The notes: generated by a model not told the origin, from the letters alone. A stretch of 38,500 nucleotides of DNA from Armatimonadaceae bacterium (GCA_035539875.1 DATLHN010000252.1:1-38500); one strand, 5' to 3'; shown: positions 1,598 to 32,616, counted from the stretch's first letter. Made by a program: numbers and translations.

Positions 1598-1634
1598 GGG
1601 TGTCACAACTCCGTATTCGCTGACTACTGCCCTG

Positions 1635-3632: not shown

Positions 3633-3726
3633 CTTCGCAGTATCCCTCCAGGGTTCCCGAAATCCCGGCATAATCGACGCGAATAACATCCCTTGAGTTC
3701 ATTCCCGCGGGTATATAGGGGGCACC

Positions 3727-9512: not shown

Positions 9513-9522
9513 ACTGCTGATT

Positions 9523-9996
9523 TTACCCTAACGATGTCGTCTCAACCTTATCAAGCGGCCTGCCCAGAATGCGCGTTTCCGCCGCGCGCATGACTTCCGC
9601 GCCTTCGTCGGTGTCGTCCTCGTGCCCCAGCAAGTGCAGGATGCCGTGCACGAGCAGCAGAGCCGTCTCCTCGGCGACCTCCCACTACCGGGCCGCCGCC
9701 TGCCGGTTCGCGGTGTCTACCGAGATCGCCACGTCCCCCAGAATCTCCGCGTCGCCGGGTCCGTCCGGCAGCGCCTCCTGCGGCCACGAAAGCACGTCCG
9801 TCGCCCTGTCGATACCGCGCCAGATCCGGTTGAGTTCCCGAATCCGCGGGTCGTCGGTTATCAGGACGCTGACCTCCGCGCTTTCCCTACCGACGTCCGC
9901 GAGTAACCTTCGTGCGGCCTCCGCCGCGCGTTCCAGTGGCGGTGCCGCCACCCCCGGCTCCGTTCGTATCGTGAGTTCCATCGGTTCCCGTGCCAT
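9523..9996 (-). pseudogene. ybeY: ybeY (rRNA maturation endoribonuclease) interrupted by an in-frame TAG
   Basis: The N-terminal 103 codons (9688-9996) contain LITDDPRIRELNRIWRGIDRATDVLSWP. An in-frame TAG lies at 9685-9687. The same frame continues [41 protein letters not shown]... to the TAA at 9523-9525. The His triad motif lies after the stop. Confidence 0.75.
9685..9687 (-). other. in-frame premature TAG codon inside ybeY
   Basis: Plus-strand cta at 9685-9687 is in frame with both the ATG at 9996 and the TAA at 9523. Confidence 0.9.
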
Positions 9997-12391: not shown

Positions 12392-12617
12392 GAAAGGTGG
12401 TGCACTGCCGCCGCGATTCGGTCCGGTGGTGCGTCCTCGATTGCTCGCTCGCGCCCGGCCTGTGCGAGACCAGGCGACCGACCGTCGCGGTCCGACGGAG
12501 AGTGCGGGTGGGGATCCCGGGCGATGCCACGGAGACCGGGAGTACGGCTTGGCGACGGCGCGCGTCCTGCCGGTATTGCGGACGGGGGCGCTGCTCTACA
12601 CGGTCAAATACGTAGAG

Positions 12618-12806
12618 TTAGCGCTCCTCGTTCTGCTTCATCTTGCGACGGCGCGCCGCTTCCGCCTTGCGCTTCTTCTCGCTGGGCTTTTCGTAATACT
12701 CGTGCGCGCGCGCCAGCTTCAGAACGCCGTCCTGCTGAAGCTGCTTCTTAAAGCGCTTCAACGCGGCGTCGAGCGGCTCGCCCGGCTTGACGATAACCTG
12801 TGCCAT
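12618..12806 (-). CDS. rpsU: 30S ribosomal protein S21 (bS21)
   Basis: 62 aa: MAQVIVKPGEPLDAALKRFKKQLQQDGVLKLARAHEYYEKPSEKKRKAEAARRRKMKQNEER. This is the classic S21 sequence pattern. GAGGAGGGA lies upstream. Confidence 0.95.
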   Translation of the reverse strand: MAQVIVKPGEPLDAALKRFKKQLQQDGVLKLARAHEYYEKPSEKKRKAEAARRRKMKQNEER

Positions 12807-12949
12807 AGTTGCTTTCTATCCCTCCTCGCTCCTGTGGGCTCGCCAACCCCGGCGTCGTTGCCATGTGGGGCGGCGGCAAAATCCTCCGTGAAACTCCGCG
12901 GAGGGTGTGCCGCAGAAACCAGGAGGAACGCGCTACCGTGCCATCGGGC

Positions 12950-12979
12950 ATTATACAGGCCCGCTTTTGCGCCTGTCAA
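12950..12979 (-). promoter_or_regulatory. near-consensus sigma70 promoter for rpsU
   Basis: On the minus strand: TTGACA (12974-12979), an 18-nt spacer, then TATAAT (12950-12955). It overlaps the stop codon of the upstream gene and predicts a leader of about 135 nt. Confidence 0.6.
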
Positions 12980-14175
12980 GGCGACGCCCCGGCCACGGGG
13001 ACTGCCACGACCGCGCCGGTCGCCAGTCCGACCAGGACGGAGTCGGGTTCAGCGCCCGGCGCGAGCGCGGTGATCGGAGAGTCGAAGGCGTACACGCGCT
13101 CCTGCGCGCCCGTAGCCGTAGAGAGTTTCACCAGCGATCCGCCGAACAGCCCGATCACGTAAGCGTCCGGTCCCAGCGCGACGACCGGGGTGACTTCGCT
13201 GCGGGCTCCGCCGAAGTCGAACGTGAATCGGAAGCGGTCCGGGACATTCGGCGCGTCCGCCTCGCGTTCGTAGAGCGTCGCGTTCACCCCGAGCACGCCG
13301 CGCACGTCGAACCGCCGCGGGTCGCCCCCGGGGTGGACGACGTACAGGTCCGCTACGGAGATCAGGTCCCCTCGCTCCGGGAGGCGCGCGACGGGTACGA
13401 CGCCTTCCCACTCGCTGGAGTACATCACGCAGGCGACTTCGCCCGTAAACGGATTGAGGCACGCGCCGCCGATGCGGGGGGAGTACGGCTCCGCCTTGAC
13501 GCATACCAGAGTCGTCGGCCCGTCGGCAACCGGGCGGCAGTCGGCGTCCAGGGGGACCGACAGGATCCGGTTGCCGTCCCAGTTGTCGGGGTCCACGGTG
13601 ACGAGGAACAGCCGGTGGGCGGCCGGGTCGTACAGGAGGCCGTCGCGCCCGGCCAGGGTCGGTCGGAGTCCATCGGGGTCGTCGTCGAGACGGAGCACCT
13701 CGTGGCGCTCGAACCGCGGAAGCGCGAAGGCGTTAACGGTGGTCGTATTGTCCTCGTCGCTGCTGTCCACCACGACGAAACGCCCCCCTGCAACGCCGAC
13801 CGGGCGGGAAGGCCCCCCACTGTACCCCTCCGTCCGCATCAAATCGCGGGCAGACTTCTCCCCCGGGTCCAGGGCCAGTGTAGCCACCGTCCACCCGTGC
13901 CCGATCCGGTTCCAGGCGACGGCCAGGATCAGCCAGGGGCCGACGAACCCCGCGGAGACGTCGATCGGCGCGCTCCTCTCCGTCACCTCGTCGACCACGG
14001 AGCGCACCCACGCCGCCGCTTCTCCGTCGATCCGGGTGCCCGCGGCGTCGCCGGCATTCCGGAAGTCGAGGACCGAGACGTCCCCGAGGTCCGTGACGGC
14101 CAGTACACGCCGCCGATCCGCCTGGTGCGCGAGCACTACGACCTCCCCGTTCAGGTTCGCGACAGTTTCGGCCAT
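12976..14175 (-). CDS. hypothetical protein, probable beta-propeller-like fold, no signal peptide
   Basis: 399 aa with normal composition and high GC3. GGGAAGGG RBS-like sequence lies upstream of the ATG at 14175. I recognise no family motif. Repetitive beta-strand-like segments are present (VLAVTDLGDVSVLDF, RFVVVDSSD, RLFLVTVDPD, DLYVVHPGGD). Confidence 0.6.
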   Translation of the reverse strand: MAETVANLNGEVVVLAHQADRRRVLAVTDLGDVSVLDFRNAGDAAGTRIDGEAAAWVRSVVDEVTERSAPIDVSAGFVGPWLILAVAWNRIGHGWTVATLALDPGEKSARDLMRTEGYSGGPSRPVGVAGGRFVVVDSSDEDNTTTVNAFALPRFERHEVLRLDDDPDGLRPTLAGRDGLLYDPAAHRLFLVTVDPDNWDGNRILSVPLDADCRPVADGPTTLVCVKAEPYSPRIGGACLNPFTGEVACVMYSSEWEGVVPVARLPERGDLISVADLYVVHPGGDPRRFDVRGVLGVNATLYEREADAPNVPDRFRFTFDFGGARSEVTPVVALGPDAYVIGLFGGSLVKLSTATGAQERVYAFDSPITALAPGAEPDSVLVGLATGAVVAVPVAGASP

Positions 14176-14258
14176 TTAGACGTCACCCTTCCCGAGCGCT
14201 GACGGAGGTTCAGGCGGCCGGTCTGTCGCCTGTCAGGTAGACCCTAAACTACCCTGCG

Positions 14259-15356
14259 CTACCACGGCGACCGTTCGCGGACGGGCACGCCCCACAACGA
14301 GCCGTCGTGCCAGAGCGAGACGTGCTCGCCGTCGGGCAGCCAGGCGACGTTCTGCGGGCCTTGGAGGGCCGACTTCGCGCCAGCAACCATGCGCGGAAGG
14401 ACGGGATAGTGGTGCCCCGTCTCAAGTTCGCTCACGAGGAATCCCATGCCGTCTTGCCCCTGGTCAGCCGGTCGCCAACCCCAGAGGTGACGCTTGCCGT
14501 CGGGCGATATACCGAGCGGCGAGTATAACTCGGGCGTCGTCAGGGTCCGCGGCCGGACCGTCGCTGACTTATCGGAGAACGTATATTCGTACAGATAGGC
14601 GGCCACGTTCCCGTCCGCGTCATATTGCCCAAGACCCCGCACGAACCCTCTCCCATCCCTGGTGATGGTCATCGGGGCGACGTAGCCGGCGGAATACAGC
14701 GGCCGTCCGTCGGCAGCAGTCACGGGTATTCGGGTGGGAACAGGCTCTGAAAGCGAGTATCGGTTCACCGCGACGGAGTCCGTGCCGAGGACGATAAACC
14801 GGCGGCTGTCCGGGAGCCAGGCGACGCAGCTATCCGTAATATCGTGTTCCTGCACGGGCCACTCTCGGGCGGACTTCCCGTCGCGGCGCACGGCAAGCCA
14901 GAGGCGCTTACCTGCCTTGACGGCGCTCGCTACGAACCATTTGCCGTCGGGCGACACGGAGAAGTAGTTGGCGTACTCGATTTCCGGCATGCGCCAGAAG
15001 GCGGTGACAACGGCGAGCGGCGTGACGACGCCCGTGCGGGCGTTCACCTCGACCCAACGGTAACCGGGTAGCTCGCGCGCGACGAACCTTTCGGCGTCTA
15101 TCCAGTGCGGGGCAGGGTCCGACGCGATGTGCTTCGTGCCGGGCACCCGCCTCCCGAACTGCTCCAGTCGGTAACGCTCCCCGTCGAACGTCGGCGAGGC
15201 GAGCCACGTGTACCGTGCGGTCCTCCGGTCCCGCGCGCGCCCGCGCAACGGACCGGAATCCGTCCGCGCAAGGTCGAAGGCGAGCCACAACAACGGGACG
15301 AGCGCCGCCGCCGCCATCCCCACGTTCCACAGGTGCCGCTTACCCGATGTGCTCAT
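14259..15356 (-). CDS. membrane-anchored TolB/PD40-like beta-propeller repeat protein
   Basis: AAGGAGGA RBS lies upstream. The N-terminal TM segment is LWNVGMAAAALVPLLWLAFDLA. PD40-like repeats: FSVSPDGKWFVASA, GISPDGKRHLWGW, VAWLPDGEHVS. Confidence 0.6.
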   Translation of the reverse strand: MSTSGKRHLWNVGMAAAALVPLLWLAFDLARTDSGPLRGRARDRRTARYTWLASPTFDGERYRLEQFGRRVPGTKHIASDPAPHWIDAERFVARELPGYRWVEVNARTGVVTPLAVVTAFWRMPEIEYANYFSVSPDGKWFVASAVKAGKRLWLAVRRDGKSAREWPVQEHDITDSCVAWLPDSRRFIVLGTDSVAVNRYSLSEPVPTRIPVTAADGRPLYSAGYVAPMTITRDGRGFVRGLGQYDADGNVAAYLYEYTFSDKSATVRPRTLTTPELYSPLGISPDGKRHLWGWRPADQGQDGMGFLVSELETGHHYPVLPRMVAGAKSALQGPQNVAWLPDGEHVSLWHDGSLWGVPVRERSPW

Positions 15357-15419
15357 TCCGCGTGATCCTCCTTGCGACCGACCATTGTTGGTCCGTTCGT
15401 CAGGAACCGCGCCATCTCC

Positions 15420-16829
15420 TCACAGCCCGAGCACGACGCGGGCGATGCTGAAATAGATGAGGAGGCCGGTCGCGTCCACGAGAGTGGTGATGAAGGGGGC
15501 CGACATGACGGCGGGGTCGGCTCCGAGTCGCTTCGCGATGAGCGGAAGCGTTCCCCCGACGACGTTCGCCCAGACGACGACCGAGATGATCGACCCGGAG
15601 ATGACCAGCGCGAAGCGCGGCTCCTCGCCCCACAGAAGCCAGACCACGAAGAAGCCGACGAGGCTGAGCAGGCCGCCGAGCAGCAGGCCCGTGCGCAACT
15701 CGCGCAGGAGGACCTTGACCCAATCGCCGAACCGCACCTCGCCGAGCGCCAGGGCGCGCGTGACCGTCATGACCGCCTGCGCGCCCGCGTTCCCGCCCGT
15801 GCCGATCAGGAGCGGGGTGAACGTCGCCAGTGCGGCCACCTTGGCGATCAGCGGCTCGAAGTGGCGCGATACGGTCCCGGTGAGCATCGAGGCGACGAAC
15901 AGCATCAGCAGCCACCCGATGCGCTGCTTCACCGTGGAGCGGATGCGCGTCGAGAGGTAGTGCGTATCGTCCCCCTGGACCGCGCCGAGCTTGAGGACGT
16001 CCTCCGTCTGCTCCTCGACCAGGATGTCTACCACGTCGTCCACGGTGACGATGCCCGCGAGCGCCCCCCGGCGATCCAGCACCGGCAGGGCGAGGAAGTC
16101 GTACTTGCTGATGATCTGCGCGACCTCCTCCTGGTCCGTGTCGACGTCCACCGTGAACGGGTCGCGCACCATGATGTCGGCGATCTTCTGGTCGGGCGCG
16201 GCCCGCACCAGGTCGCGCAGCGAGAGGACGCCCACCAACGTCTCCGGCACTCCCTTCGCGCCCCCGTTGACCACGTACAGGTCGCTGAGTGTCTCGACCT
16301 CGGGATCGGCGCGGCGGATGACGCCGAACGCCTCGTCGACGGTGAGAGTCCCGCGAAGGCGGACGAACTTGTCGGTCATCAGGCGGCCGGCGGTCTTCTC
16401 CTCGTAGGAGAGGAGTTCGCGCACCTCGGCGGCGTCCTCCGGGGCGCGGGTCTCCAGGTCGGCCAGTATCTCCTCGGCACGCTCGGGACGGTCCTCGGCG
16501 ATCTCGGCGACGACCTCGGCGGCGTCGTCCATCGGGAGCCGGTCGAGAAGGTCGGCGATGCGCCCGGGAGGCGCGTTTTCCAGCAGATAGCGGACCAGAT
16601 CGCGGTCGAGTTCGTCGAGGACCTCCGCCGCGCGCACGTTGTCCAGCCAGTTGAAAACGGCGAGCGCCTCGGGTCGGGCGATCTCCTGCATCACCTCGGC
16701 GATGTCCGCCGGGTGCCGCCCGCGCAGCGCCGCGGTCATCGCCAGGTCTCCGCCGTCCCCCGGAGGGATGCGCAGGGCGCTGCGCAGGCGCTCGGCGAGG
16801 TCCGAAGACGAATCCGACAGGGCGGGCAT
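15420..16829 (-). CDS. mgtE: magnesium transporter MgtE
   Basis: MgtE N-terminal domain (AEVLDELD), a CBS pair, and a membrane domain with TPLLIGTGGNAGAQAV and PFITTLVDATGLLIYF. GGAGGAG RBS lies upstream. Confidence 0.9.
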   Translation of the reverse strand: MPALSDSSSDLAERLRSALRIPPGDGGDLAMTAALRGRHPADIAEVMQEIARPEALAVFNWLDNVRAAEVLDELDRDLVRYLLENAPPGRIADLLDRLPMDDAAEVVAEIAEDRPERAEEILADLETRAPEDAAEVRELLSYEEKTAGRLMTDKFVRLRGTLTVDEAFGVIRRADPEVETLSDLYVVNGGAKGVPETLVGVLSLRDLVRAAPDQKIADIMVRDPFTVDVDTDQEEVAQIISKYDFLALPVLDRRGALAGIVTVDDVVDILVEEQTEDVLKLGAVQGDDTHYLSTRIRSTVKQRIGWLLMLFVASMLTGTVSRHFEPLIAKVAALATFTPLLIGTGGNAGAQAVMTVTRALALGEVRFGDWVKVLLRELRTGLLLGGLLSLVGFFVVWLLWGEEPRFALVISGSIISVVVWANVVGGTLPLIAKRLGADPAVMSAPFITTLVDATGLLIYFSIARVVLGL

Positions 16830-16928
16830 GGCAGGCGGCTCCTCCGGCAGGCGGGATACAAATGACGTACGCCGCGCGGGTGGCCGGCGCGGCGCGTCGT
16901 GAGGATTATACCCGCCCCGCGCGGGAGG

Positions 16929-17330
16929 CTACCGACGGCGGCGGAGGGCGTAGATAAGGCAGGCCGCGGCGAGGACGCCCTGCGGCCAGGCGGAGCCTAC
17001 TTTCGGGGCGTGGTACTTGCCCCCGCCGACGTGGGTCGGGAAGACCAGTTTTTCCTGCGGGAGGAGTCCGGTCACGTAGGCCGCGTTCTCGAAGTCCGGG
17101 GTGATCCCGCCGACCGCGCCCCAGAACTCCGGAGACTTCACCCCGCAGCGCAGTGCGATCACGGCGAGCGTCACCGCCAGCAGCGGGGCCTCCGTCTTCG
17201 GGTCGAAGTCCTTGTGGGGAACGAGGTCGCCGAGCAGGTGCGTCGCCACCCCGGCGGCGAAGCCGGTGGAGCGCCGCCCCGCGAGTCTGCCGACCGCCGC
17301 ACCGATAGCCGCGTGGACCGCGCAGATCAC
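16929..17330 (-). CDS. small membrane protein, possibly YdjM/DUF457-like metal-dependent hydrolase
   Basis: 133 aa and hydrophobic, with an HLLGDLVPHKD motif. It starts 4 nt after the transglycosylase stop, so it is likely co-transcribed. The family call is weak. Confidence 0.45.
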   Translation of the reverse strand: MICAVHAAIGAAVGRLAGRRSTGFAAGVATHLLGDLVPHKDFDPKTEAPLLAVTLAVIALRCGVKSPEFWGAVGGITPDFENAAYVTGLLPQEKLVFPTHVGGGKYHAPKVGSAWPQGVLAAACLIYALRRRR

Positions 17331-17334
17331 GGCG

Positions 17335-18522
17335 TCAGGCTCCCCCGCCGCCGTCCTCGCCGCCGCAGAGCGCCTTGTAGATGGCGGCGATCTTGCGGAC
17401 GTACTTCTGGGTCTCGCGATAAGGCGGGACTCCGCCGTACTTCTTCACGGCGCCCGGCCCGGCGTTGTAGGCCGCGAGGGCGAGGACGATCTGTTTCATG
17501 GTCAGGTTGTCCATCGCCGCGCCGCCGCTGTATTTGTCCAGGTGCGAGCGAAGCAGGTAGATCGAGCCCGCCAGGTTCTGCACCGGGTCGTAGGGATTCG
17601 AGAGCGGGATCTTCTGCTGGAGGTCGCGGAACGTCCCCGGCATGAGTTGTCCGAGGCCCATCGCCCCCGTGTGCGACGTGGAGCTGATGTCGAAGTCGGA
17701 CTCCGCGATGACCAGCGCGACGACGAGGCGCGGGTCGAGGTCCAGGTCCCCGGAGAAGCGCAGAATGGCCGCGGTGATGTCGTCGGCCTGCCGGTCGGTC
17801 AGCTTCCGGTTCCACCCCTGGATGAACCGCTTGTAGGCGGGGTACACGGACATCACCCCCTGTCCGAGGGAGGCGACGCCGGAAGCGCCCCCGCCCCGGA
17901 GCGAGGCGGCGGACCGGGAGGGCAGCGACCCGCGCGGCAGCGCCGCGACCCGCTGCGGGGCGGCGGAAGGCTTCTTCGCCTTGGACGCCGTGACGCGCTG
18001 CGTCCACTGCCTTTCCTTCTCGGTGATGTCGAGCGCGGAGGCGACGGCGACGACCTCCATCACCGGCACGCCGATCTCGACCGTGCCGGGCGCGCCGCCG
18101 GTGGCGACGATAAGCACTCGCAGCCGCTCGCCGGGCTGTACCCAGGAGGGAAGGCTGCTCATGGTCAGGGAGACGGTGCCGTTGGTGTCGGTCGCCAGCA
18201 TCAGCATCGCCTCGGCCTCGTCCCCGACGCCGGAGCGGACGACGCCCGAGAGCCGACCCTGGAGTTCCATGGTCATCCCGCGGTATTTCGCCGGGTTCCG
18301 CGCGAGGACGTCGAGATTCAGCCCGCGCTGCGGCGGGTACATGCGCCGGATGGCAAGATACTGCTCACTCGGCGAGGAGTGGTGGTAGCCCTCGGCGGCC
18401 TGCGCCCGCGCCGTGCCGCAGGGAACGAGGCAGCCGGCGAGGGCGGCAATTGCTGCGAGCGACACGACGGCCCGGCGAGCGGGCCCGCGGAAAGCCGAAT
18501 CAGTGGGAAAACCGGGGATCAA
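17335..18522 (-). CDS. lytic transglycosylase (SLT domain) with N-terminal unknown domain
   Basis: SLT motifs: VIAESDFDISSTSHTGAMGLGQLMPGT and AAYNAGPGAVKKYGG. The track ORF (to 18654) overlaps tRNA-Ser, so I trimmed the start to the TTG at 18522, which has GGGAGG 8 nt upstream. A GTG giving MSLAAIAALAGC (lipobox-like) is an alternative start. Confidence 0.75.
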   Translation of the reverse strand: MIPGFPTDSAFRGPARRAVVSLAAIAALAGCLVPCGTARAQAAEGYHHSSPSEQYLAIRRMYPPQRGLNLDVLARNPAKYRGMTMELQGRLSGVVRSGVGDEAEAMLMLATDTNGTVSLTMSSLPSWVQPGERLRVLIVATGGAPGTVEIGVPVMEVVAVASALDITEKERQWTQRVTASKAKKPSAAPQRVAALPRGSLPSRSAASLRGGGASGVASLGQGVMSVYPAYKRFIQGWNRKLTDRQADDITAAILRFSGDLDLDPRLVVALVIAESDFDISSTSHTGAMGLGQLMPGTFRDLQQKIPLSNPYDPVQNLAGSIYLLRSHLDKYSGGAAMDNLTMKQIVLALAAYNAGPGAVKKYGGVPPYRETQKYVRKIAAIYKALCGGEDGGGGA

Positions 18523-18577
18523 GGCGAGAACCTCCCGTCCTATGTGCGGGGCGGGCGGCGGTTCGCCGCCGGGGAAA

Positions 18578-18668
18578 CGGAGAGATCGGGATTCGAACCC
18601 GAGGTAGGGGCATTCACCACTACAACCGCTTAGCAGGCGGCCGCTTTCGTCCACTCAGCCATCTCTCC
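18578..18668 (-). tRNA. tRNA-Ser (anticodon GCU)
   Basis: Minus strand: GGAGAGA acceptor stem, 3-bp D stem, anticodon stem GCCGC/GCGGU with loop CUGCUAA, long variable arm, T arm TCGGG-TTCGAAT-CCCGA, 3' TCTCTCC plus G. CCA is not encoded. Confidence 0.9.
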
Positions 18669-23861: not shown

Positions 23862-25274
23862 TTACTCCTCGACGGTCAGGGTGAAACGGGCGACGGACCG
23901 GCCGCGATTCCGGTCCCAGAGGTACAGGGCCATCGGCGCTTTCGCGCCCGGTTTCGCCGCCTCCGGCACGCGGAGCGTGAACCCCGCCTTCACCGGGACG
24001 TTGCGGTATTCGCTGGTGACGACGACGTCGGGCGACTCGCTCACCAGCACGGCGTAGGCGCACTCGCCCGCGATGCGCGGCGCGTAGGAGACCGTCGAAC
24101 CCGGGCGGAGCTTCGCGCCGCCCTCCACGCTCCCCCCCAGCAGGGACGCCGTTCCCGGCCGGGCGGCGGGCATCTCGCCGCCGACCTCCAGGAAGTGCAG
24201 GAGCGGCTCGCGGACGTTTTTCGCGTATTCCGCCTCGATCTCCTTGACCGGCGGGTAGCGCGCGTCCAGGCCGACCTCGAAGTTCAGCGAGTACACGCCC
24301 CGGGTGTAGAACGCCCAGGTGTAGGTCAGGCCCGTGTTGCTGGTGCGCGTCCCCGGCCGCGGCTCGGAGTCGGGCTCGCTCTTCGTGATCCGGTAGGGCT
24401 TGTCCTTCTGGCGGTCGCGCATGCCGCCCGCGAGTCGGGAGAAGCGCGCGTGCTCCGGCCCGATCAGGTGCGCGGGAAAGAGGATGCAGCGCAGCGGGCT
24501 GTGGATGTCCAGGAACGCCCTCAGGTTCGGGCGACTTTCGATGAACTTCGCGAGGGCGGCCGTCTCCGGCTCCGAAAGCGGCGCCCTCCCCTCGTAGATG
24601 CTGCCGCTCGGGTTGACAGTGGTGGTACGCCAGAGCGGGTCCGGGTCCCGGAAGCCGCCCCACCGCACCGGGAAGTTACGGTTGAGGTCGACGCCGACCG
24701 CCTTTCCCGCGGGATGGGCGCGCCGGTTCTTGCGCCAGTCCGCGCCTTTGTCCTTCCCGTTGCCGCGCTTCATGTCGTACACCTTGCCGTCCACGTTCAG
24801 CATCGGGATGACCCAGACCTGCCGCTCCCGCAGGATGCGCGTCAGGCGCTCGTCCTTGCCGTAACCGGCGAGCAGCTCGTCCACAAGGCGATAAAGGCAG
24901 ACCTGCGGCTGCTGTTCCCGCGGGTGTATTCCCGCCATCAGCAGGACCTCGGGCTCGGCGGCATCGCTCTCCGGGTCGGCGTTGTCGCACAGGCGCAGGA
25001 GCGGGATGTCCCGCCCCTCCACCGTCTTGCCGAGGCTACCGACGTGAACGAGCGCGGGATACCGGGCGCGCCACCCCGCGATCTTTTCCATGACTTCGGG
25101 CCACGTGTAGTACCCGCCGTAGTCCCCGTTCGGGGCGTCCGCCGCCGCCGTCGGCGACTGGGCGGCGGGATTGGCGGGCGGCGCGACGGCCGTGAGCGAA
25201 AGCAGCGCGGCAGCCCCCGCGAGCGCGAGACGGACGCCCGCCCATGCCACTCCCTTACTGATTCGGACAGCCAA
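23862..25274 (-). CDS. secreted M14 family zinc carboxypeptidase with C-terminal beta-sandwich-like extension
   Basis: Signal peptide: [39 protein letters not shown] is the HxxE zinc motif, and FLDIHS carries the third ligand His. The start is a TTG at 25274 and is uncertain. Confidence 0.8.
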
Positions 25275-26130
25275 AGGTCGGCTCCAGACACGGGGACCAG
25301 TACTGCGAGTAACCCGCCGGGCGGTACGACTCCTCGGGCTGGCCGGGCAGCTTGTAGAAGCTCTCTACCTTTGCCGACTTGGCGTGACCGTCGGCCCAGA
25401 GGACGTTCACCCGCTGCTGATGGCGCGCGAGCGGCGAGCCGTAGTCCGCGAAGTTTATGACCGGGGCCGACCCGGCGTGTACCAGCAGGTAGGGCAGGCG
25501 GCGGTTCGTGTCCGGCATGCCCGCGACGGCGGAGGCGCTTACCTTCGCCTTCCAGTCGGCGGGGTTGACGCCCTGGAGCGGCTGACTCGCGCCATCCACG
25601 AGCATCACGGTGGAGGCTGCCTTGACGGTCTCAGGCAGCGTAGTGCCGGGAATGCCGGTGGGCGAGAAGTTGCCGCCGAGGAAGTAGTTATAGGCGTAGG
25701 TCACCGGGAAGCGGGCCTCGGGAGTGTCGCCCGTGCCCGGCGTGTTTCCGACCTCGCCCGGATCGCTGCTCGGGCAGACGAAGAGCTGGACGTTGCGGAC
25801 GTAGGGCTGCACGATGCGCGGCCACGAGGCGGGCGTCGAGCTTGCGGAGAAGGAGCCGGTGGCGGACTGATAGAAGCTGATGGGGTAGCTTTCGTCGAAA
25901 TCCTGAACGTACTGGAGGACGGCCAGTCCGATCTGCTTCAAGTTGGACAGGCAGGCGGTCTGCCGCGCCTTCTCCCGTGCCTGGGCGAATACGGGGAAGA
26001 GGATGGCGGCCAGGATCGCGATAATCGCTATCACGACGAGAAGCTCGATTAGGGTGAAAGCCGGGTGCCGACCGGGCGTCTTCCCCCGGGTTAGGGCGGG
26101 GCGTTGCGCGCGGTCGAAGCCGAAGGGCAT
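25255..26130 (-). CDS. prepilin-type N-terminal cleavage/methylation domain protein, H-X9-DG (DUF1559-like) family
   Basis: Basic leader, then [45 protein letters not shown]. The C-terminal [13 protein letters not shown] matches H-x9-DG. AGGAG RBS lies upstream. Confidence 0.85.
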
Positions 26131-26218: not shown

Positions 26219-27388
26219 TCAGTCGCGGTACAGCAGGAACGCCTCGCGCGCCTTCTGGAACGCCTTCAGGTCGGGGGTCCAGCGCTTCGAGATCGTGGCG
26301 TAGTCCTCGCCCGCCAGCAGACCGTCCATGGCGGCGCGGTTCGCGAGGAGCGTGAGATAGCGGCTGGCCTGCCACTCCTCGAGGTACAGCGCGCGCATGG
26401 CGAGCGCGATCTCGATGCCCGCCCGCACCGGCTGGAACTTCACGCGGTCGGTCACGACGATATTGATGCCCCCGCACGACTCGCCCGCGAACTTGCTGGC
26501 GGCAGGCGTGAAGCGTATCGGAATGAAGCGGACGCCGGGCATCTGTCGAGCATTCAGGTAGTAGGCCAGCGTGCGACCGTCGATGTAGGGCGCGCCGAGA
26601 ACCTCGAAGGGCGTGTCGGTCCCGCGGCCGACGCTGACGTTGGTGAACTCGATCAGGCCGACCCCGGGGTAGTTCAAAGCCTGGGCGAGCGAGCGCATGT
26701 TCGGGGAGGGGTTCGTCCACTGGAGGCCGGTGGCGTCCCAGTAGTCGGAGCGCTTCCACCCCTCGCACTTGACGACGACCAGTTCGACGTCGAGCCCGCG
26801 CTCGGCCTTGTAGAGCTGGGCCATCTCGCCCATCGTCATCCCGTGCCGTACGGGCACGGGGTGGAACGCGGTGAACGACAGGCGCGTCTCGTCCGCCACA
26901 GGCCCCTCGACCGCTACCCCGCCGATGGGGTTGGGCCGGTCCAGCACGACGTAGCGGATCTTGTTGCGCGCGGCGGCCTGAAGGCAGTGGCCGAGGGTGG
27001 AGCTATAGGTGTAGAATCTACAACCGACGTCCTGGATGTCGTAGACCAGGGTGTCGACCCCCTTGAGCTGCTCGTCGGTCGGTTCGGTCCGCTGGCCGTA
27101 GAGGGAGAAGACCGGTACGCCCGTGCGCTCGTCCACGCCGTCGGGGATCGACTCGTCGAGCATGCCGCGGATGCCGTGCTCGGGGCCGAAGAGAACCTTG
27201 AGGTCGAACCCGCCCGCCAGGTGCAGTGCGTCGATGGTCGTCACCTTGCCGTCCCGGAGCAGCCCGGTGTGGTTGGTGACCAGGCCCACCTTCGCTCCCT
27301 GGAGAAGGCTGAATCCGTCGCGGTTCAAAACGTCGATGCCCGTCCGGACCGACGGGAAGTCGTCAGATTCTGGTTCCACAAGGCTCAT
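26219..27388 (-). CDS. DUF1343 family protein (NamZ-like exo-beta-N-acetylmuramidase)
   Basis: 389 aa. KVGLVTNHTGL is followed by LFGPEHGIRG, VYDIQDVGCRFYTY and LDRPNPIGG, all typical of DUF1343. Confidence 0.85.
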   Translation of the reverse strand: MSLVEPESDDFPSVRTGIDVLNRDGFSLLQGAKVGLVTNHTGLLRDGKVTTIDALHLAGGFDLKVLFGPEHGIRGMLDESIPDGVDERTGVPVFSLYGQRTEPTDEQLKGVDTLVYDIQDVGCRFYTYSSTLGHCLQAAARNKIRYVVLDRPNPIGGVAVEGPVADETRLSFTAFHPVPVRHGMTMGEMAQLYKAERGLDVELVVVKCEGWKRSDYWDATGLQWTNPSPNMRSLAQALNYPGVGLIEFTNVSVGRGTDTPFEVLGAPYIDGRTLAYYLNARQMPGVRFIPIRFTPAASKFAGESCGGINIVVTDRVKFQPVRAGIEIALAMRALYLEEWQASRYLTLLANRAAMDGLLAGEDYATISKRWTPDLKAFQKAREAFLLYRD

Positions 27389-27523
27389 TAAACCACAGTG
27401 ATGCCGTTACGAGGGGGGAAGCACCGCAAATCTTGACGCGGGTCTGTACGAATCGCGGAAACACTCCGATAACTGAAGACAGTAACCACCGATCGTTCGC
27501 TCGCCAGGTCACCGGAAGCCGCC

Positions 27524-28177
27524 ATGATCTCCATACTACTCGCTGATGATCACCTCCTCGTCCGACAGGGTCTACGGGTGCTGCTCTCGACGCAGTCCGA
27601 CTTCAAGATCGTGGACGAGGCGGCCGACGGCCGTGAGGCCCTCGAGAAGGCCGAGAGGCACCGGCCGAACGTGCTGGTGGTGGACCTCGCGATGCCCGGA
27701 CTCGACGGCCTCGAGGTGACGCGCCTGGTCACCCAGCGGCAGCCGGACACCCGCGTCGTCGTCGTGTCGATGCACGCGAGCGAAGAGCACGTGCTGAAGG
27801 CGCTGCGCCACGGCGCCCAGGGCTACGTGCTGAAAGAGGCGAGCGCGGACGAGTTGACCCAGGCGATCCGCTCCGTCATGGAGGGACGGCGTTACCTCTG
27901 CTCGGCGATCTCCGAGCGCGCCATAGACGCCTACGTCAACCGCACCGACGTCCAGCCACTCGACATTTACGAGACGCTGACCACCCGCGAGCGCGAGGTG
28001 TTCCAGCTGGTCGCGGAGGGCTACACCAACGCGGAGGCTGCCGAGCGGCTCTTCATCAGCATACGGACCGTGGAGACTCACCGCGCTTCGGTAATGCGCA
28101 AGCTCAACCTGCGCTCGCAGGCGCACCTCGTCGCCTACGCCATGCGGCGTGGAATGGTGCCGGAGATGACCCATTAG
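27524..28177 (+). CDS. response regulator, NarL/FixJ family (REC + LuxR-type HTH)
   Basis: MISILLADDHLLVRQGL...VLVVDLAMPGLDG forms the REC domain. The C-terminal LTTREREVFQLVAEGYTNAEAAERLFISIRTVETHRASVMRKL is a GerE/LuxR HTH. Confidence 0.9.
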   Translation: MISILLADDHLLVRQGLRVLLSTQSDFKIVDEAADGREALEKAERHRPNVLVVDLAMPGLDGLEVTRLVTQRQPDTRVVVVSMHASEEHVLKALRHGAQGYVLKEASADELTQAIRSVMEGRRYLCSAISERAIDAYVNRTDVQPLDIYETLTTREREVFQLVAEGYTNAEAAERLFISIRTVETHRASVMRKLNLRSQAHLVAYAMRRGMVPEMTH

Positions 28178-28190
28178 AGACGAAAACGCA

Positions 28191-28229
28191 AACTACGTAG
28201 TGCTCCGGAGTGAACTACGTAGTTCTCCG
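28191..28229 (+). promoter_or_regulatory. tandem 17-nt direct repeat, each copy containing the perfect 10-bp palindrome ACTACGTAGT (candidate operator)
   Basis: AACTACGTAGTGCTCCG (28191-28207) and AACTACGTAGTTCTCCG (28213-28229) match at 16 of 17 positions. The palindrome centres are 22 bp apart. The element lies between the RR stop (28177) and the first pilin-like gene (28319). Confidence 0.6.
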
Positions 28230-28318
28230 ACTCCGTCTCAGCTCGATTCCTGCCGTATTCCTAAACACGGAACGGAATATGCAGTGTCCCTCATAACGCC
28301 GTCCGGGAGCCCGAAATC

Positions 28319-28768
28319 ATGACGCGAATACCCGCAGCCCGTAACCGTAGAAGACGGACAAGCGCAGGCGCCCTGCTACTGGACGTCATGCTGGCGATCT
28401 TCGTTTGCACGTCCGTCATCATCACGGCGGTCTCGCTGATCACGACAGCGGTTGCCGCGTCGGAAAGTTCCAAGCAGAACACCGTCGCCTACAACGCCGC
28501 CCGCCAGGCCATCGAGAACCTGCGGCAGTACAAGGACGCGAAGATCCAGGACGGCACCTACACGGACCTGTCCGTCTTCGGCGCGATACCCCAGCTGACG
28601 GAGGACAACGTACTCCGGAACCCGCAGGCCCGCATGACCGTCAGCACGTTCCGCAACCCGGTGAAGATGGTCACGGTGACCGTCACCTTTCAGGCCGGAA
28701 GTACGGGGCAGCGCACCGTCCGCCGCCGCGTGACCAGCATTGTCTCGCCCCGAGGAGTGGCCCCATGA
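28319..28768 (+). CDS. pseudopilin-like protein A (GspI/PilV-like size and layout), non-canonical prepilin leader
   Basis: MTRIPAARNRRRRTSAG/ALLLDVMLAIFVCTSVIITAVSLITTAVA has a basic leader, Gly at -1 and an acidic residue (D) at +5, then a roughly 25-aa hydrophobic helix and a small beta-rich domain (VKMVTVTVTFQAGSTGQRTVRRRVTSIV). GGGAG RBS lies upstream. Confidence 0.6.
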   Translation: MTRIPAARNRRRRTSAGALLLDVMLAIFVCTSVIITAVSLITTAVAASESSKQNTVAYNAARQAIENLRQYKDAKIQDGTYTDLSVFGAIPQLTEDNVLRNPQARMTVSTFRNPVKMVTVTVTFQAGSTGQRTVRRRVTSIVSPRGVAP

Positions 28769-29574
28769 CACCTACCCGACGCGGGCGTTCGACGCGCTCC
28801 CGGAGGACTGCCTCCTCCCTGACCGAAGCACTGGTATTCGCCGCCGTGCTCGGCCTGCTGATGACCGGCGTCCTCGCCCTCGTCTCCTTCGCGGCCACCA
28901 CGGGGACGAAGACGATGACGATGGACGATCTCGGCGACGACGCGCGCCTCGCGGTGGACGAAGTGGTGTACCAGGTGCGTTCGGGCGACCTCATACTCCC
29001 GAGCCGGACGCTGGGAACCCTCTCCTACCAGACGAACGGGTCGAGCATCGTCCTTCGCACGCCGGGCTACGATCCGGCCACGACCGCCGTCTTTACCGGA
29101 AACAGCGATTTCGTCGCGCTCCGATTCGATCAGAACACGAGGATGCTAACCCAGACGATCCAGAAGAGCACGGGCTCCGCCCGGCCCACGCGAACCGAGA
29201 AGGTCCTGGCCCGGAACGTGGCCTCGACCATCTTCACCTACCGGGTGCGCGACCAGTTCACGCCGACGGAGAGCGGACTGCACACGCTCACGCTCTCCCG
29301 GGTCCCACTCTCCGCGCCGAAGGTGTTCATCAACGGGGTGCCCGCGGCGAGCACCTTCAGCGGGATGGCCCAGTCCGTGACGGTCACCACACCGTATCGC
29401 GGGTCCGATGTCCAGGTGACGTACGCCGTCAGCCCGACCGCGAATTCGGGGGCCGCGCTCAACAGCGTGACGGAGGTCGATGTTACCATCCGGCTCACCG
29501 ACCGTGACCAGCGCAACATCGAACGAGTACAGACGCTTCAAGGCGGGGCGCGCCTGCGCAACCGACGCCTCTAA
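28765..29574 (+). CDS. pseudopilin-like protein B (GspJ/PilW-like size), non-canonical leader
   Basis: The ATG at 28765 overlaps the stop of gene A (ATGA). GAGGAG RBS is 7 nt upstream. MTPTRRGRSTRSRRTA/SSLTEALVFAAVLGLLMTGVLALVSF has E at +5 if cleaved after Ala. The longer track ORF (from 28405) is an out-of-frame read across gene A. Confidence 0.6.
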   Translation: MTPTRRGRSTRSRRTASSLTEALVFAAVLGLLMTGVLALVSFAATTGTKTMTMDDLGDDARLAVDEVVYQVRSGDLILPSRTLGTLSYQTNGSSIVLRTPGYDPATTAVFTGNSDFVALRFDQNTRMLTQTIQKSTGSARPTRTEKVLARNVASTIFTYRVRDQFTPTESGLHTLTLSRVPLSAPKVFINGVPAASTFSGMAQSVTVTTPYRGSDVQVTYAVSPTANSGAALNSVTEVDVTIRLTDRDQRNIERVQTLQGGARLRNRRL

Positions 29575-29592
29575 CTAAGGACGACTCCAAAC

Positions 29593-30855
29593 ATGAGCAG
29601 CGCACTCCCCGAGTGGAAAGGTAACGGCGCAATGAGCGGCCCGAACCCAGTAGCGAGCATCTCCCCCGCGGCGCGGCGGCGCAAGCGCGCCGGGTTCGCC
29701 ACCATGACGACGCTCTTCATGGTCGTCCTCGCGGTCGTCGCCGTGTTCGTCATCATCAGCTCCTCGCTGGCGCAGATCCAGCTCTCGAGGCGGGGCCAGA
29801 ACCGCTCCACGGCGCTGGTGCTGGCGGAAGCGGGGGTTGACGACACGCTCGACCGGCTGAGGCTGAACCCAAAGTATGTGGGCGGCAGCGGCACGCTGTT
29901 CGAGGACCCGCCGACCAACACCGCAACCTTCGGCACCTACGCCACGACCGTCACGGAGCTCACGGAGGAGACCCGCAAGGTCCAGTCCGTGGGCACCAAC
30001 CCGGACGGTTCGACCGGCGAGGTGGCGGCGATCGTGCGCATCGACATGCGCGCCCTCGGGAGCGCGGCGATCGCGTCGAACCATGCGGTCAACATCAACG
30101 GCACCGCGAACATCCTCACGACGCCCCTGGACGCCCACGTCGCCAACGTCCACAGCAACAACAACGTCGTCATGGGCAGCAACAGCATCGTGGACGGCTA
30201 CCTGTCGGCCGTGGGTACGACTTCGGGGACCGCGTACTTCCCCTCGAAGCCGGGCTCGCCCGAGATGTACTTCCCGGACAGTGCGACCACGACGGATTGG
30301 CGGCAGAAGTGGGCTCTGCAGGCCATGGCGGGCGGCGTGATCAACAGCAATGTTAATAAGAGTGCGACCATCACCGGCCCGAAGTACATCAACGGCGACA
30401 TTACGCTGAACAACTACGAGTCGGTGAAACTCACGGGCTCGGGCATCATCTACGTGAGGGGCAACGTGCGACTCACCGGCCAGGCCATACTGGAGAACGG
30501 CGTCACCCTCATCGTGGAAGGCACCTTCGAGCAGCAGGGCGGCACCGTGTACAAGGTCACAACGGGTATCACGCCGACCCCGACACTCGCCGTATACGGC
30601 TCGAACAAATCGGACACGGACGACGTCGTGTCCCTCGCCGGCGGCTCCCTCAACGTTCACCAGGGGATCGTTTACGCGGTAAAAGGCCGGATCAAGGTCG
30701 CGGGCGGTTCCACCTTCGTCGGGGCGCTGGTGGCGGGCGGCAAGGCGGGCGGCGTGGCGGCGACGGGTAACTACACCCACCTCTATCCGAAGGACATGGC
30801 GTCCATCATCAAGTTCCCCACGGACCCGCGCGTGGAGAGCATTATCGAATTCTGA
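29593..30855 (+). CDS. large pilin-like protein C (PilX/GspK-like N-terminus with repetitive beta-rich C-terminal domain)
   Basis: ...AARRRKRAG/FATMTTLFMVVLAVVAVFVIISSSLAQIQLSRRGQNRSTALVLAEAGVDD resembles a PilX_N-type N-terminus. The remainder is rich in short G/N/V/I repeats. An alternative start is the ATG at 29632. Confidence 0.6.
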   Translation: MSSALPEWKGNGAMSGPNPVASISPAARRRKRAGFATMTTLFMVVLAVVAVFVIISSSLAQIQLSRRGQNRSTALVLAEAGVDDTLDRLRLNPKYVGGSGTLFEDPPTNTATFGTYATTVTELTEETRKVQSVGTNPDGSTGEVAAIVRIDMRALGSAAIASNHAVNINGTANILTTPLDAHVANVHSNNNVVMGSNSIVDGYLSAVGTTSGTAYFPSKPGSPEMYFPDSATTTDWRQKWALQAMAGGVINSNVNKSATITGPKYINGDITLNNYESVKLTGSGIIYVRGNVRLTGQAILENGVTLIVEGTFEQQGGTVYKVTTGITPTPTLAVYGSNKSDTDDVVSLAGGSLNVHQGIVYAVKGRIKVAGGSTFVGALVAGGKAGGVAATGNYTHLYPKDMASIIKFPTDPRVESIIEF

Positions 30856-30863
30856 CGTAACAG

Positions 30864-30906
30864 GCCGCGCCCCGGAGGAGTCTCATCCCCGGGGCGCGGC
30901 TTTTCC
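30864..30906 (+). terminator. strong rho-independent terminator after the pilin-like cassette
   Basis: gccgcgccccgg (30864-30875) pairs perfectly with ccggggcgcggc (30889-30900), followed by TTTTCC. Confidence 0.8.
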
Positions 30907-30939
30907 GCGTTCCACGGACGTGCGAAGCGGAGAACAGCC

Positions 30940-32616
30940 GTGCTAGGTGACGATGCACCGTTAGCCCTCACACCCCCTCCGGGGAACCTCCTCTCGACGG
31001 CCCGCTTCCGCGTACTGGCCGTCTTCTTCTGTTTCTCGCTGCTCCTGCTCTCCGGGCTCTCCGTGTGGCAGACGATCGAGGCTTACCGCGCCAGCGCACT
31101 GGTGAAGCGGCTTTCGGAGGAGAGCGCGGAGACCGCCGCCCGCATCCTCGCGCTCGAAGGGCGCGGCCTCGGCAACTTCATCTCGGATTACTCGCCCTGG
31201 GACGAGATGGCCCGGTTCGTCCGGACGGGCGATCCCGCCTGGGCTAAGATCAACATCCGCACCGTGCAGGGCAACTTCCAGGCCGACATCGTCCAGGTCT
31301 TCACCCCGGGGGGGAGGCGCGTTCTCTCTTCGGTGCGGGAATCCCAGCTCGGAATCCCGGACTTCGATCTGATCCCCGCCCCTTCCCGGCGGAGCATCTC
31401 CGATCAGCGGCTCGCCCACTATTATCTGTGGACCGCCTCGGGACTCGTCGAAGTACAGGCTGCCAGCATCCACCCCACGGGAGACCCCTACCGCCGCGGA
31501 ACGCCGCGCGGACTGCTCGCCGGGGGCCGCCTGTGGGACGACGAACATCTCGCCACCATTGAAAAACTGACCGCGTCCCGCATACGACTCCTCCCGGCAA
31601 CGACCGCCGACGATTCCTTCGCGGACGGCGCGGACACCGCCTTTCGCATTCGCCTCCCGGGGCCGGACGGACGCACCGCCGCACTCCTGGACTTCACGCG
31701 TCCGGAAACCACCGTGGAGATGCTTACCCGTCCCACGCGTCAGGTCATCGCTTCGGTGGCCCTGGTGGACGGCGTCATGATGGTCCTGTTGCTGCTCGCG
31801 CTGCGATCGAACGTGACGCAGCCGCTCTCCTCGGTTACCCGCTACCTTTCGAGCGGAGATGTCGGCGCGCTCGAGAGGCTGCGCCGGTCCGGTTCCGAAT
31901 TCCGGCGCATCGCCCAGATGCTCGCCGAGCACGACCGCAATCGGGCGGAGTTGCGTGAATCGCGCCGTCAGTACCGGGAGTTGACCCAGCGCCTCGTGCA
32001 GGTACAGGAGGGCGAGCGGGCGCACCTCGCCCGCGAACTTCACGACGAGATCGGGCAGACCCTCACGGGGCTGAACCTCATGCTGGCCGGAATCGACCCG
32101 GCGCGGCCGGACGCCGCGGAGCGGCGCGACGCCGCCCGCGCCCTCGTCACCGACCTCATGGGGCAGGTGCGGGGACTCTCCCTGACGCTGCGCCCTCCCA
32201 TGCTCGACGACCTGGGCCTGTTGCCCACGCTGACCTGGTTCGTCCAGCGCTTCACGGCGCAGACGGGCGTCGCCGTCGCGCTGCGCCACTCCGCCCTGGA
32301 GCGGCGCTTCCCGCCCGCGGTGGAGACCGCCGCCTACCGGATCGTGCAGGAGGCGCTCACCAACGTCGCGCGCCACTCCGGGGCGACCGAGGCGCGGGTC
32401 AACGCCTGGGCGGACGACGAGGCGCTCCACATCCAGATCGAGGACCACGGCGCGGGCTTCCCCTCGCGCCCCGACGGCACGCCCTCCGTCTCCCACACCG
32501 GCGGACTGATCGGGATGCGCGAGCGGGCGGAGCTGGTCGGCGGCACCCTGGCCGTCGATTCGACGCCCGACTCCGGCACGCTCGTCTCGGTGACCCTGCC
32601 GCTCCCGGTCGCGTAG
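30940..32616 (+). CDS. sensor histidine kinase (CHASE4-like extracytoplasmic domain, HisKA_3, HATPase_c)
   Basis: GTG start with GGAGA 6 nt upstream. TM1 is RFRVLAVFFCFSLLLLSGLSVW. The sensor region of about 230 aa contains FISDYSPWDEMARFV. TM2 is VIASVALVDGVMMVLLLLAL. The H-box is ERAHLARELHDEIGQTL. ATPase motifs: EALTNVARHS, DHGAGF, GGLIGMRERAELVGG. Confidence 0.85.
   Translation: MLGDDAPLALTPPPGNLLSTARFRVLAVFFCFSLLLLSGLSVWQTIEAYRASALVKRLSEESAETAARILALEGRGLGNFISDYSPWDEMARFVRTGDPAWAKINIRTVQGNFQADIVQVFTPGGRRVLSSVRESQLGIPDFDLIPAPSRRSISDQRLAHYYLWTASGLVEVQAASIHPTGDPYRRGTPRGLLAGGRLWDDEHLATIEKLTASRIRLLPATTADDSFADGADTAFRIRLPGPDGRTAALLDFTRPETTVEMLTRPTRQVIASVALVDGVMMVLLLLALRSNVTQPLSSVTRYLSSGDVGALERLRRSGSEFRRIAQMLAEHDRNRAELRESRRQYRELTQRLVQVQEGERAHLARELHDEIGQTLTGLNLMLAGIDPARPDAAERRDAARALVTDLMGQVRGLSLTLRPPMLDDLGLLPTLTWFVQRFTAQTGVAVALRHSALERRFPPAVETAAYRIVQEALTNVARHSGATEARVNAWADDEALHIQIEDHGAGFPSRPDGTPSVSHTGGLIGMRERAELVGGTLAVDSTPDSGTLVSVTLPLPVA

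Follow-up and report, generated by a model that had tools for sequence, protein, structure and literature searches.

The 38,500-nucleotide stretch DATLHN010000252.1:1-38500 (GCA_035539875.1), called the window here at its full length, comes from an uncultured soil Armatimonadota bacterium. At 27524-32616 it carries a response regulator gene and a sensor histidine kinase gene with a trio of genes, A, B and C, between them. The present analysis deals with the nature of the three products, for which a relationship to type IV pilins is strongly supported, and with the two flanking genes, which probably control the trio by switching it on. The contig has a GC content of 68%. The same contig sequence is found in JGI sample 3300028592 and in an ENA assembly, and the independent gene calls of both assemblies are identical. 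The initial annotation, made on the bare sequence, had placed regulator and kinase on the same strand, non-adjacent, with three co-directional genes between them. All of its coordinates were verified, as were the two gene junctions read from the sequence, namely the ATGA overlap of A and B at 28765-28768 and the 18-nt gap between B and C at 29575-29592. The features of the region are listed below.

27524-28177, + strand: response regulator of the NarL/FixJ type (REC + GerE), 217 amino acids (aa); from Pfam and the open reading frame (ORF)
28191-28229, no strand: candidate operator with two direct repeats; from the repeat search
28319-28768, + strand: gene A, 149 aa, small, minor-pilin-like, tentatively of the PilV/GspI class; from the ORF
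28765-29574, + strand: gene B, 269 aa, minor-pilin-like, of the putative PilW/GspJ class; from the ORF and an AlphaFold2 (AF2) model
29593-30855, + strand: gene C, 420 aa, predicted tip pilin of the PilX/GspK class with a beta-solenoid, ComZ-like; from the ORF and an AF2 model
30862-30906, + strand: terminator-like hairpin after C; from RNA folding
30940-32616, + strand: sensor histidine kinase, 558 aa, with a transmembrane (TM) segment, an extracytoplasmic CHASE4 domain, a further TM segment, a linker, HisKA_3 and HATPase_c; from Pfam

The two-component pair

Pfam searches confirmed the domains that had been assigned to the NarL/FixJ-type regulator and the CHASE4/HisKA_3 kinase. In the regulator, Response_reg is matched with E = 4e-30 (104.6 bits) and GerE with E = 6.5e-20 (71 bits), and the acidic pocket DD8-9, the phospho-acceptor D54 and K104 can be read from the sequence. 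The best NCBIfam models are MctR and NarL, both below their equivalog cut-offs. No LytTR domain was matched in the regulator with Pfam or NCBIfam, the output domain being GerE. In the kinase, CHASE4 reaches 50 bits against a cut-off of 26.2 (E = 4.4e-13), HisKA_3 45.8 bits (E = 8.8e-12) and HATPase_c 53.7 bits (E = 3.4e-14), and the H-box reads LHDEIGQ. Hydrophobic segments at residues ~17-46 and ~266-293 flank CHASE4 and enclose an extracytoplasmic region of ~220 residues.

Comparison with NarXL, UhpBA, MctSR and LiaSR, which are NarL/FixJ systems with HisKA_3 kinases, revealed strong matches for the REC-GerE architecture and for the HisKA_3/HATPase_c core, whereas all equivalog models stayed below cut-off and the CHASE4 sensor half stands almost alone. 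Among 5.8 billion proteins this half has only two relatives, P0022 (96% identity, a fragment) and P0023 (42%), and all other matches of the kinase are common to the kinase core only. Judged from their sequences, regulator and kinase appear to be a cognate-type pair between which phosphotransfer would take place. An orthologous pair brackets trios in a second locus, L015 (see below).

Pilin-like features of A, B and C

Each of the three products starts with an Arg-rich leader followed by one hydrophobic segment of more than 30 residues. The leaders are long (17-34 residues), with G or A at −1 conserved among homologues, and the residue at +5 is acidic in A (Asp) and B (Glu) and non-acidic in C (Thr). 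The comparison of basic leader and long helix with class III signal peptides, drawn in the initial annotation, found support in the families, where G/A at −1 and the +5 pattern are conserved in register. The predicted isoelectric point of the mature protein is 6.25 for C and near 10 for A and B. As its +5 residue is non-acidic, C would be expected as the tip subunit, in the position of GspK or PilX.

The leader of A ends with TSAG, followed by ALLLD, which puts Asp22 at +5. This Asp is invariant in all 12 members of the A family, in which G or A at −1 is also conserved. A conserved Asp5 is unusual among type IV pilin-like proteins. Codon 22 of A occupies 28382-28384, and a further relative, in locus L017, has Glu at +5 instead. 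Searches with hidden Markov models (HMMs) gave matches of the A family that were all below cut-off, to PilV in six of 12 members (best 1.2e-5), to ComGE in five, to HpsB in two and to the GspI model in a single homologue (6e-4); window A itself gave weak matches to PilV and ComGE. Motifs, size, position and these weak HMM matches hint at a protein of the PilV/GspI class. A match of A to the CFA/I fimbrial subunit CfaB (E = 1e-5 with a PDB profile) was dismissed as an artefact of a triplicated fusion chain, in which each stretch contributes ~9.5 bits with an individual E of 7-9.

In B, the leader ends with RRTA, followed by SSLTE, and at least 90% of the 12 family members share the Glu21 at +5. 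The Pfam model N_methyl matches four of 12 B homologues at E ≤ 0.01, that of locus L010 with 24.2 bits against a cut-off of 21.2, and leaves window B without a match; one B homologue matches the XpsI and GspH models. The AF2 model of B (pLDDT 84.9) consists of a helix at 19-73 (55 residues) and subsequent beta-sheets. Ranked by Foldseek probability and TM-score, the type IV-like pilin TTHA1219 of Thermus comes first (probability 1.00, TMt 0.45-0.49, E ~1e-3). The staphylococcal adhesins SdrG and ClfA have a lower E (1.5e-4 to 9e-4) but a TM-score of ~0.2. Profile searches of the PDB with the alignments of A, B and C returned nothing significant; that of B gave an N-terminal match to TTHA1219 only (E = 0.15) and that of C none at all.

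The leader of C ends with RKRAG, followed by FATMT. In the family alignment, G or A at −1 and Phe at +1 precede an invariant AEAG motif, typical of PilX_N. Window C scores 26.8 bits with DUF7305 (PF23981; cut-off 27) and is without a PilX_N (PF14341) match. An exhaustive profile search with C collected 1742 clusters at E ≤ 1e-3; among 70 distant relatives of C, DUF7305 was found in 44, PilX_N in eight and an ice-binding-like adhesive domain in two. The named relatives of gene C are Armatimonadota metagenome-assembled genomes only. In the AF2 model of C (pLDDT 85.7), a helix at 35-91 (57 residues) is followed by a four-strand sheet at 97-154, a solenoid at ~160-399 and a terminal strand at 407-419, which presumably goes back to the pilin sheet. 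The only PDB match of C in Foldseek at E ≤ 1e-3 is ComZ (6qvi_C, E = 5e-8, probability 1.0), followed by ice-binding proteins and a tapirin, and the published structural neighbours of ComZ make up the same list (PMC6561018).

The two best structural matches are neighbours in their own genome. In Thermus thermophilus, TTHA1218 (PilA2), TTHA1219 (PilA3) and TTHA1220 (ComZ) stand in the same small-medium-large order as A-B-C; TTHA1218 is GspI-like and TTHA1219 GspJ-like, and both lie directly before comZ (PMC5131608, PMC6561018). ComZ, which has been argued to sit at the pilus tip (PMC6561018), has the layout of C, that is a pilin helix and sheet and then a beta-solenoid. Since B resembles TTHA1219 and C resembles ComZ in the same order, the window trio repeats the order and the fold assignment of the Thermus locus and follows a GspI/J/K logic with a solenoid tip. 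Nevertheless, the two loci differ in several respects. The PDB profile searches detected no sequence similarity between them, C has 420 aa compared with 507 residues in the ComZ chain, A has Asp at +5, and the trio is without a fourth FimT/GspH-like gene and without an adjacent major pilin. The two papers on the Thermus locus (PMC5131608, PMC6561018) mention no two-component system beside it.

A second parallel is provided by the core minor-pilin sets of cyanobacteria, composed of FimT, PilV, PilW and PilX, in which a beta-solenoid PilX resembling ice-binding proteins has been proposed as a tip plug; a cyanobacterial genome can hold several alternative sets with different functions (bioRxiv 10.64898/2026.02.12.705559). 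The two A homologues with weak HpsB matches fit this comparison, HpsB being the PilV-type partner of HpsA. In contrast to the cyanobacterial sets, the trio belongs to another phylum, has three members instead of four, and every such set has a regulator gene, or several, to which it is firmly coupled.

Taken together, these results strongly support the assignment of A, B and C to type IV pilin-like proteins of the GspI/J/K or PilV/W/X kind. The likeness to these sets, as first proposed, stands for the resemblance of B to TTHA1219 and of C to ComZ and for the weak PilV, ComGE, HpsB and GspI matches in the A family. It did not extend to the gspJ and gspK models, which matched neither the trio nor its homologues, nor to the solenoid of C. 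The HMM searches were divided in the same way, with pilin-family matches among the homologues while the window copies all remained below cut-off. The predicted models show pilin-like folds for B and C; processing of the three proteins by a prepilin peptidase, formation of a complex and a place of C at its tip are predictions.

Related loci and candidate control elements

A word-index search found ten homologues of C and 11 of B, numbers by which the trio would be rare. Scans of a genome and a metagenome collection for C yielded two loci each, so that broad synteny statistics are impossible. Beyond the copies of the same contig, the trio is present as a unit in ten loci (L004-L008, L010, L013, L014, L015 and L017/L018), and in L009 the contig end truncates the locus and only C is visible. 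In the recovered trio loci the three genes are always together, in the order A-B-C or C-A-B.

The order in L015 is regulator, A-B-C, A'-B'-C' and CHASE4 kinase. The regulator of L015 is 66% identical to that of the window and has a near-identical recognition helix, and the kinase that closes the locus is P0023, whose 42% identity extends over TM-CHASE4-TM. The trio proteins of L015 are only 35-40% identical to those of the window. The bracket was thus kept through strong divergence and duplication of its cargo, which argues against chance adjacency. Two full trios in tandem occur in L015 (612-6462, between regulator and kinase) and in L014 (692-5916, on a short contig with no recognised regulator), and the tandem paralogues are ~30-45% identical to each other.

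The survey of relatives thus retained the regulator-trio-kinase order in L015 and gave other or no recognised regulators at the other eight trio loci. In the lower-GC loci L005-L008 and L013, the trio recurs together with genes for an ECF sigma factor, a ~208-aa unannotated protein, a ~920-aa TPR/CHAT protein and an S8 peptidase (in L013, for example, at 8829-17053). Such surroundings suggest that tip sets of this kind are, in these loci, under a different control module that involves a protease. A TetR regulator lies upstream of the trio in L004 and downstream in L017, L010 has no recognised regulator beside the trio, and in L009 the other strand carries an ECF sigma/anti-sigma/MucB-like set. 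As the flanking pair is missing at the other eight loci, control of A-B-C by the pair is what we infer from position, from the synteny of L015 and from the candidate operator described below.

It was also observed that L004, L013 and L017 come from one metagenome (JGI 3300043546), on contigs of 764, 427 and 393 kb with a GC content of 59-61% and with three different neighbourhoods; they may be several alternative trios of one genome. In neighbour-joining trees of A, B and C, the nodes relevant to a sister relationship of the window and L015 trios are unresolved or conflicting. C falls into the clade of low-GC, ECF-linked loci (82%), A and B go weakly with the high-GC loci, and the trees give no conclusion on cassette swapping.

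In the 141-bp spacer between the regulator gene and A, the repeat search revealed two 17-nt direct repeats, AACTACGTAGTNCTCCG, 22 bp apart from start to start. Each repeat contains the palindrome ACTACGTAGT, and the second copy is a 12-bp perfect palindrome, AACTACGTAGTT. The two AACTACGTAGT palindromes lie ~95-125 bp upstream of A and are found nowhere else in the window, where the exact 11-mer has three strand-hits at these two sites only, compared with 0.00 expected in shuffles. The TACGTA core occurs three times in the 38.5 kb. A pair of palindromes about two helical turns apart would suit dimeric regulators of the GerE type, and we regard the pair as a candidate operator, at which the regulator would bind and exert an effect whose sign is likewise putative. 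TACGTA is also found upstream of the trios in L015 (at 578, ~34 bp ahead of the TTG at which A probably starts), in L004 (at 8350 and 8382) and in L005 (at 9923). As an operator of all trios it was rejected, being absent upstream in L006, L007, L008, L010, L013, L014 and L017.

The hairpin at 30862-30906 has a GC-rich stem of ~17 pairs followed by UUUUCC and ends ~35 nt before the start codon of the kinase gene. Its fold has −39 kcal/mol (z = −6.5), and none of 200 shuffles was as stable. Its loop and the shortness of the T-run kept it from being detected in a scan for consensus terminators. In L015, too, a hairpin is found after each of the two trios. The kinase gene has its own ribosome-binding site, GGAGAA, and is likely expressed by read-through or from a promoter of its own; a scan for the sigma-70 promoter consensus found none. 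The locus is likely organized as three units, that is the regulator gene, the operator with A-B-C and the terminator, and the kinase gene. No riboswitch or known RNA was matched by Rfam in 27350-31000.

Two further structures were observed in RNA and DNA around trio genes. In the minimum free energy fold, a small hairpin at 30901-30935 directly follows the terminator-like stem, with the tract UUUUCCGC pairing with GCGGAGAA, at which ribosomes presumably bind to translate the kinase. One may speculate that this pairing couples kinase translation to read-through. In the high-GC loci L014 (~645-690 and ~3385-3430) and L010 (~2860-2885), the ribosome-binding site and start codon of A form the end of a conserved, GC-rich inverted repeat, CCGTGGGGCGGCGG ... 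GCCGCCCACGGAGGGACTCGTG, which may be a translational control hairpin; this repeat is not present in the window.

A proposed signal-controlled tip set and its alternatives

We consider it probable, though well short of certain, that the locus is a self-contained module, in which a CHASE4/HisKA_3 kinase and a REC-GerE regulator flank, and control, a tip-pilin operon for a type IV filament. The kinase would sense an extracytoplasmic signal and phosphorylate the regulator at D54. Regulator dimers would then bind the two palindromes and set the transcription of A-B-C, the transcript stopping at the hairpin downstream of C. The three proteins would be cut after the G or A at −1 by a prepilin peptidase whose gene lies elsewhere, and their N-terminal helices would join them in a complex of the GspIJK kind that serves for priming or as a tip. 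C would take the top position, as its +5 residue is not acidic. The complex would prime and cap a filament made by type IV pilus machinery that is likewise encoded elsewhere, and the solenoid of C would decide what is bound. A cultured Armatimonadota genome contains PilB, C, D, Q, M and T together with 79 PulG-like genes (PMC4072686). Since paralogous trios of relatives are wired to other regulators, there are probably several alternative tip sets, of which the window trio is the one whose expression depends on the CHASE4 signal.

A number of results weigh against this reading. With regard to the pilins, the window copies of A, B and C are all below the cut-offs of the curated HMMs (N_methyl as PF07963 and TIGR02532, GspI/J/K, PilV/W/X and ComG, in Pfam and NCBIfam), the structure models cover B and C of the three proteins, and the TM-scores are modest for B against TTHA1219 (0.45-0.49) and low for C against ComZ (0.22-0.25). 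Genes for a pilus ATPase, a platform protein, a secretin and a prepilin peptidase are all missing from the 38.5-kb window. With regard to control, the bracket is absent from eight of the ten trio loci outside this contig, and the second TACGTA of L015, at 673, probably lies inside the leader-coding part of A. The trio of L004 has a TACGTA pair but no response regulator beside it, and the motif might therefore be recognised by a different factor. The hairpin between C and the kinase gene means that the kinase is not simply co-transcribed with the trio.

Several of these points would be accommodated if the trio were a pilin set inserted between two-component genes that regulate others, with another factor reading the palindromes. 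Most trio loci are without the pair, the paired TACGTA of L004 adjoins a TetR gene, C and the kinase gene have a terminator-like hairpin between them, and the trees do not make the window and L015 trios sisters. We hold such a chance neighbourhood to be unlikely, as trios with only 35-40% identity to that of the window are enclosed by orthologues of the pair in a second lineage, which is hard to explain without a functional link, and as the repeated palindrome is unique in the window and lies exactly between the regulator gene and A. The question whether A, B and C are pilins at all has a firmer answer. N-terminally anchored or Sec/Tat-exported envelope proteins with a superficial pilin resemblance could account for the failure of the window proteins at all curated pilin cut-offs, for the long, Arg-rich leaders of 17-34 residues and for Asp instead of Glu at +5 of A. 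Against this, G/A at −1 and the acidic +5 keep their register in the family alignments, N_methyl is matched in B homologues, the models of B and C have N-terminal helices of pilin length (55-57 residues), and the best structural matches come from adjacent pilin genes of Thermus that are arranged as in the trio; we therefore regard this explanation as very improbable.

The trio could further belong to a type II secretion pseudopilus, as the counterpart of its GspI/J/K tip, and serve protein secretion instead of capping an extracellular pilus. Like GspI-GspJ-GspK, it has three members, not four, which become larger in the same order, and its predicted top subunit has no Glu at +5. One A homologue resembles gspI, one B homologue resembles XpsI and GspH, and a GspG-like DUF1559 pseudopilin gene is nearby. 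TTHA1218 and TTHA1219 are structurally nearest to GspI and GspJ (PMC5131608). However, C has a beta-solenoid like that of ComZ and of cyanobacterial PilX in place of the alpha-helical insertion of GspK (PMC6561018), PilX_N is present in C relatives, the gspJ and gspK models gave no match, and no secretion operon with ATPase, platform protein and secretin was seen in the window or in the related loci examined. This makes the pseudopilus quite unlikely. The kinase might also monitor the trio itself through its TM segments and CHASE4, responding to the unassembled pool of A, B and C or to engagement of the tip and so providing inventory or surface-contact feedback. PilS senses PilA, and minor pilins and PilY1 signal via FimS-AlgR in Pseudomonas aeruginosa. 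Kinase and pilins are both bitopic or polytopic inner-membrane proteins with periplasmic domains, and the bracket was kept while the trio sequences diverged. Yet CHASE4 is a generic extracytoplasmic sensor domain and the trio goes with quite different regulators elsewhere, and such monitoring appears improbable to us. A related, more far-reaching proposal would make the locus a closed sensory unit, the CHASE4 kinase reading its own tip complex, as the unassembled pool or as contact of the tip with a surface or ligand, and several tip sets of Armatimonadota each being placed on a different signalling module, namely the two-component system in the window and ECF sigma factors with CHAT and S8 proteases or TetR regulators at other loci; it is unlikely, and if true, the cell would pick what its single pilus machine binds by the signal present.

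The reading as a signal-controlled tip set may be compared with FimS-AlgR of Pseudomonas aeruginosa, a two-component system dedicated to the minor-pilin operon fimU-pilVWXY1E. AlgR is a LytTR regulator, FimS is not known to have CHASE4, and their genes are not known to be split around the target. In the window, by contrast, the regulator is of the NarL/GerE type, the kinase has CHASE4 and the pair is split around the trio. The initial view that the arrangement was previously undescribed holds for the bracket of NarL-type regulator and CHASE4 kinase, and gives way for the trio, as three-part core sets with a solenoid tip are known (PMC5131608, PMC6561018, bioRxiv 10.64898/2026.02.12.705559). 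The locus is a new arrangement of known parts and not a new type of system or class of machine. Several points are new. A minor-pilin operon goes together with a regulator of this class and with a CHASE4 sensor, two lineages have retained the nested gene order, the small subunit has an invariant Asp at +5, and trio paralogues of relatives occur on quite different regulators.

Minor-pilin tip sets determine the role of a type IV filament in adhesion, DNA uptake or motility, and, except in Pseudomonas and cyanobacteria, little is understood of how cells select one set over another. If the proposed module is true, the locus would offer a simple, testable case of signal-specific choice of a pilus tip in a barely studied phylum and the first biological output for a CHASE4/NarL-type pair.

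The surroundings of the module contain a further prepilin-type gene. The statement that the window is without pilus ATPase, platform protein, secretin and prepilin peptidase proved correct, whereas the statement that it is without a major pilin needs qualification, as an N_methyl gene that the initial annotation does not mention is present at 25255-26130 on the − strand, 2.2 kb upstream of the regulator gene. Its product has, besides N_methyl, DUF1559, a C-terminal H-X9-DG motif and a GspG/PilA-like N-terminus. DUF1559 pseudopilin genes of this type are usually multi-copy in Armatimonadota and Planctomycetota. At its end the gene shares 20 bp with the beginning of a gene for an M14 carboxypeptidase (23862-25274). 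Together with the genes for a NamZ exo-beta-N-acetylmuramidase (26219-27388) and an M3 oligopeptidase (22024-~23853), the carboxypeptidase gene forms a row upstream of the module, all on the − strand; this row, divergent from the regulator gene, resembles a cell-wall or peptide recycling cluster.

Farther away, a tRNA gene at 18578-18668 (− strand) is the sole Rfam match in the window at the gathering threshold. It overlaps the upstream end of the longest ORF of an SLT transglycosylase (17335-18654), so that the SLT gene probably starts further downstream. A DUF1501/DUF1800 gene pair occupies 215-3689 on the − strand, a pairing that is common in Planctomycetota and related phyla.

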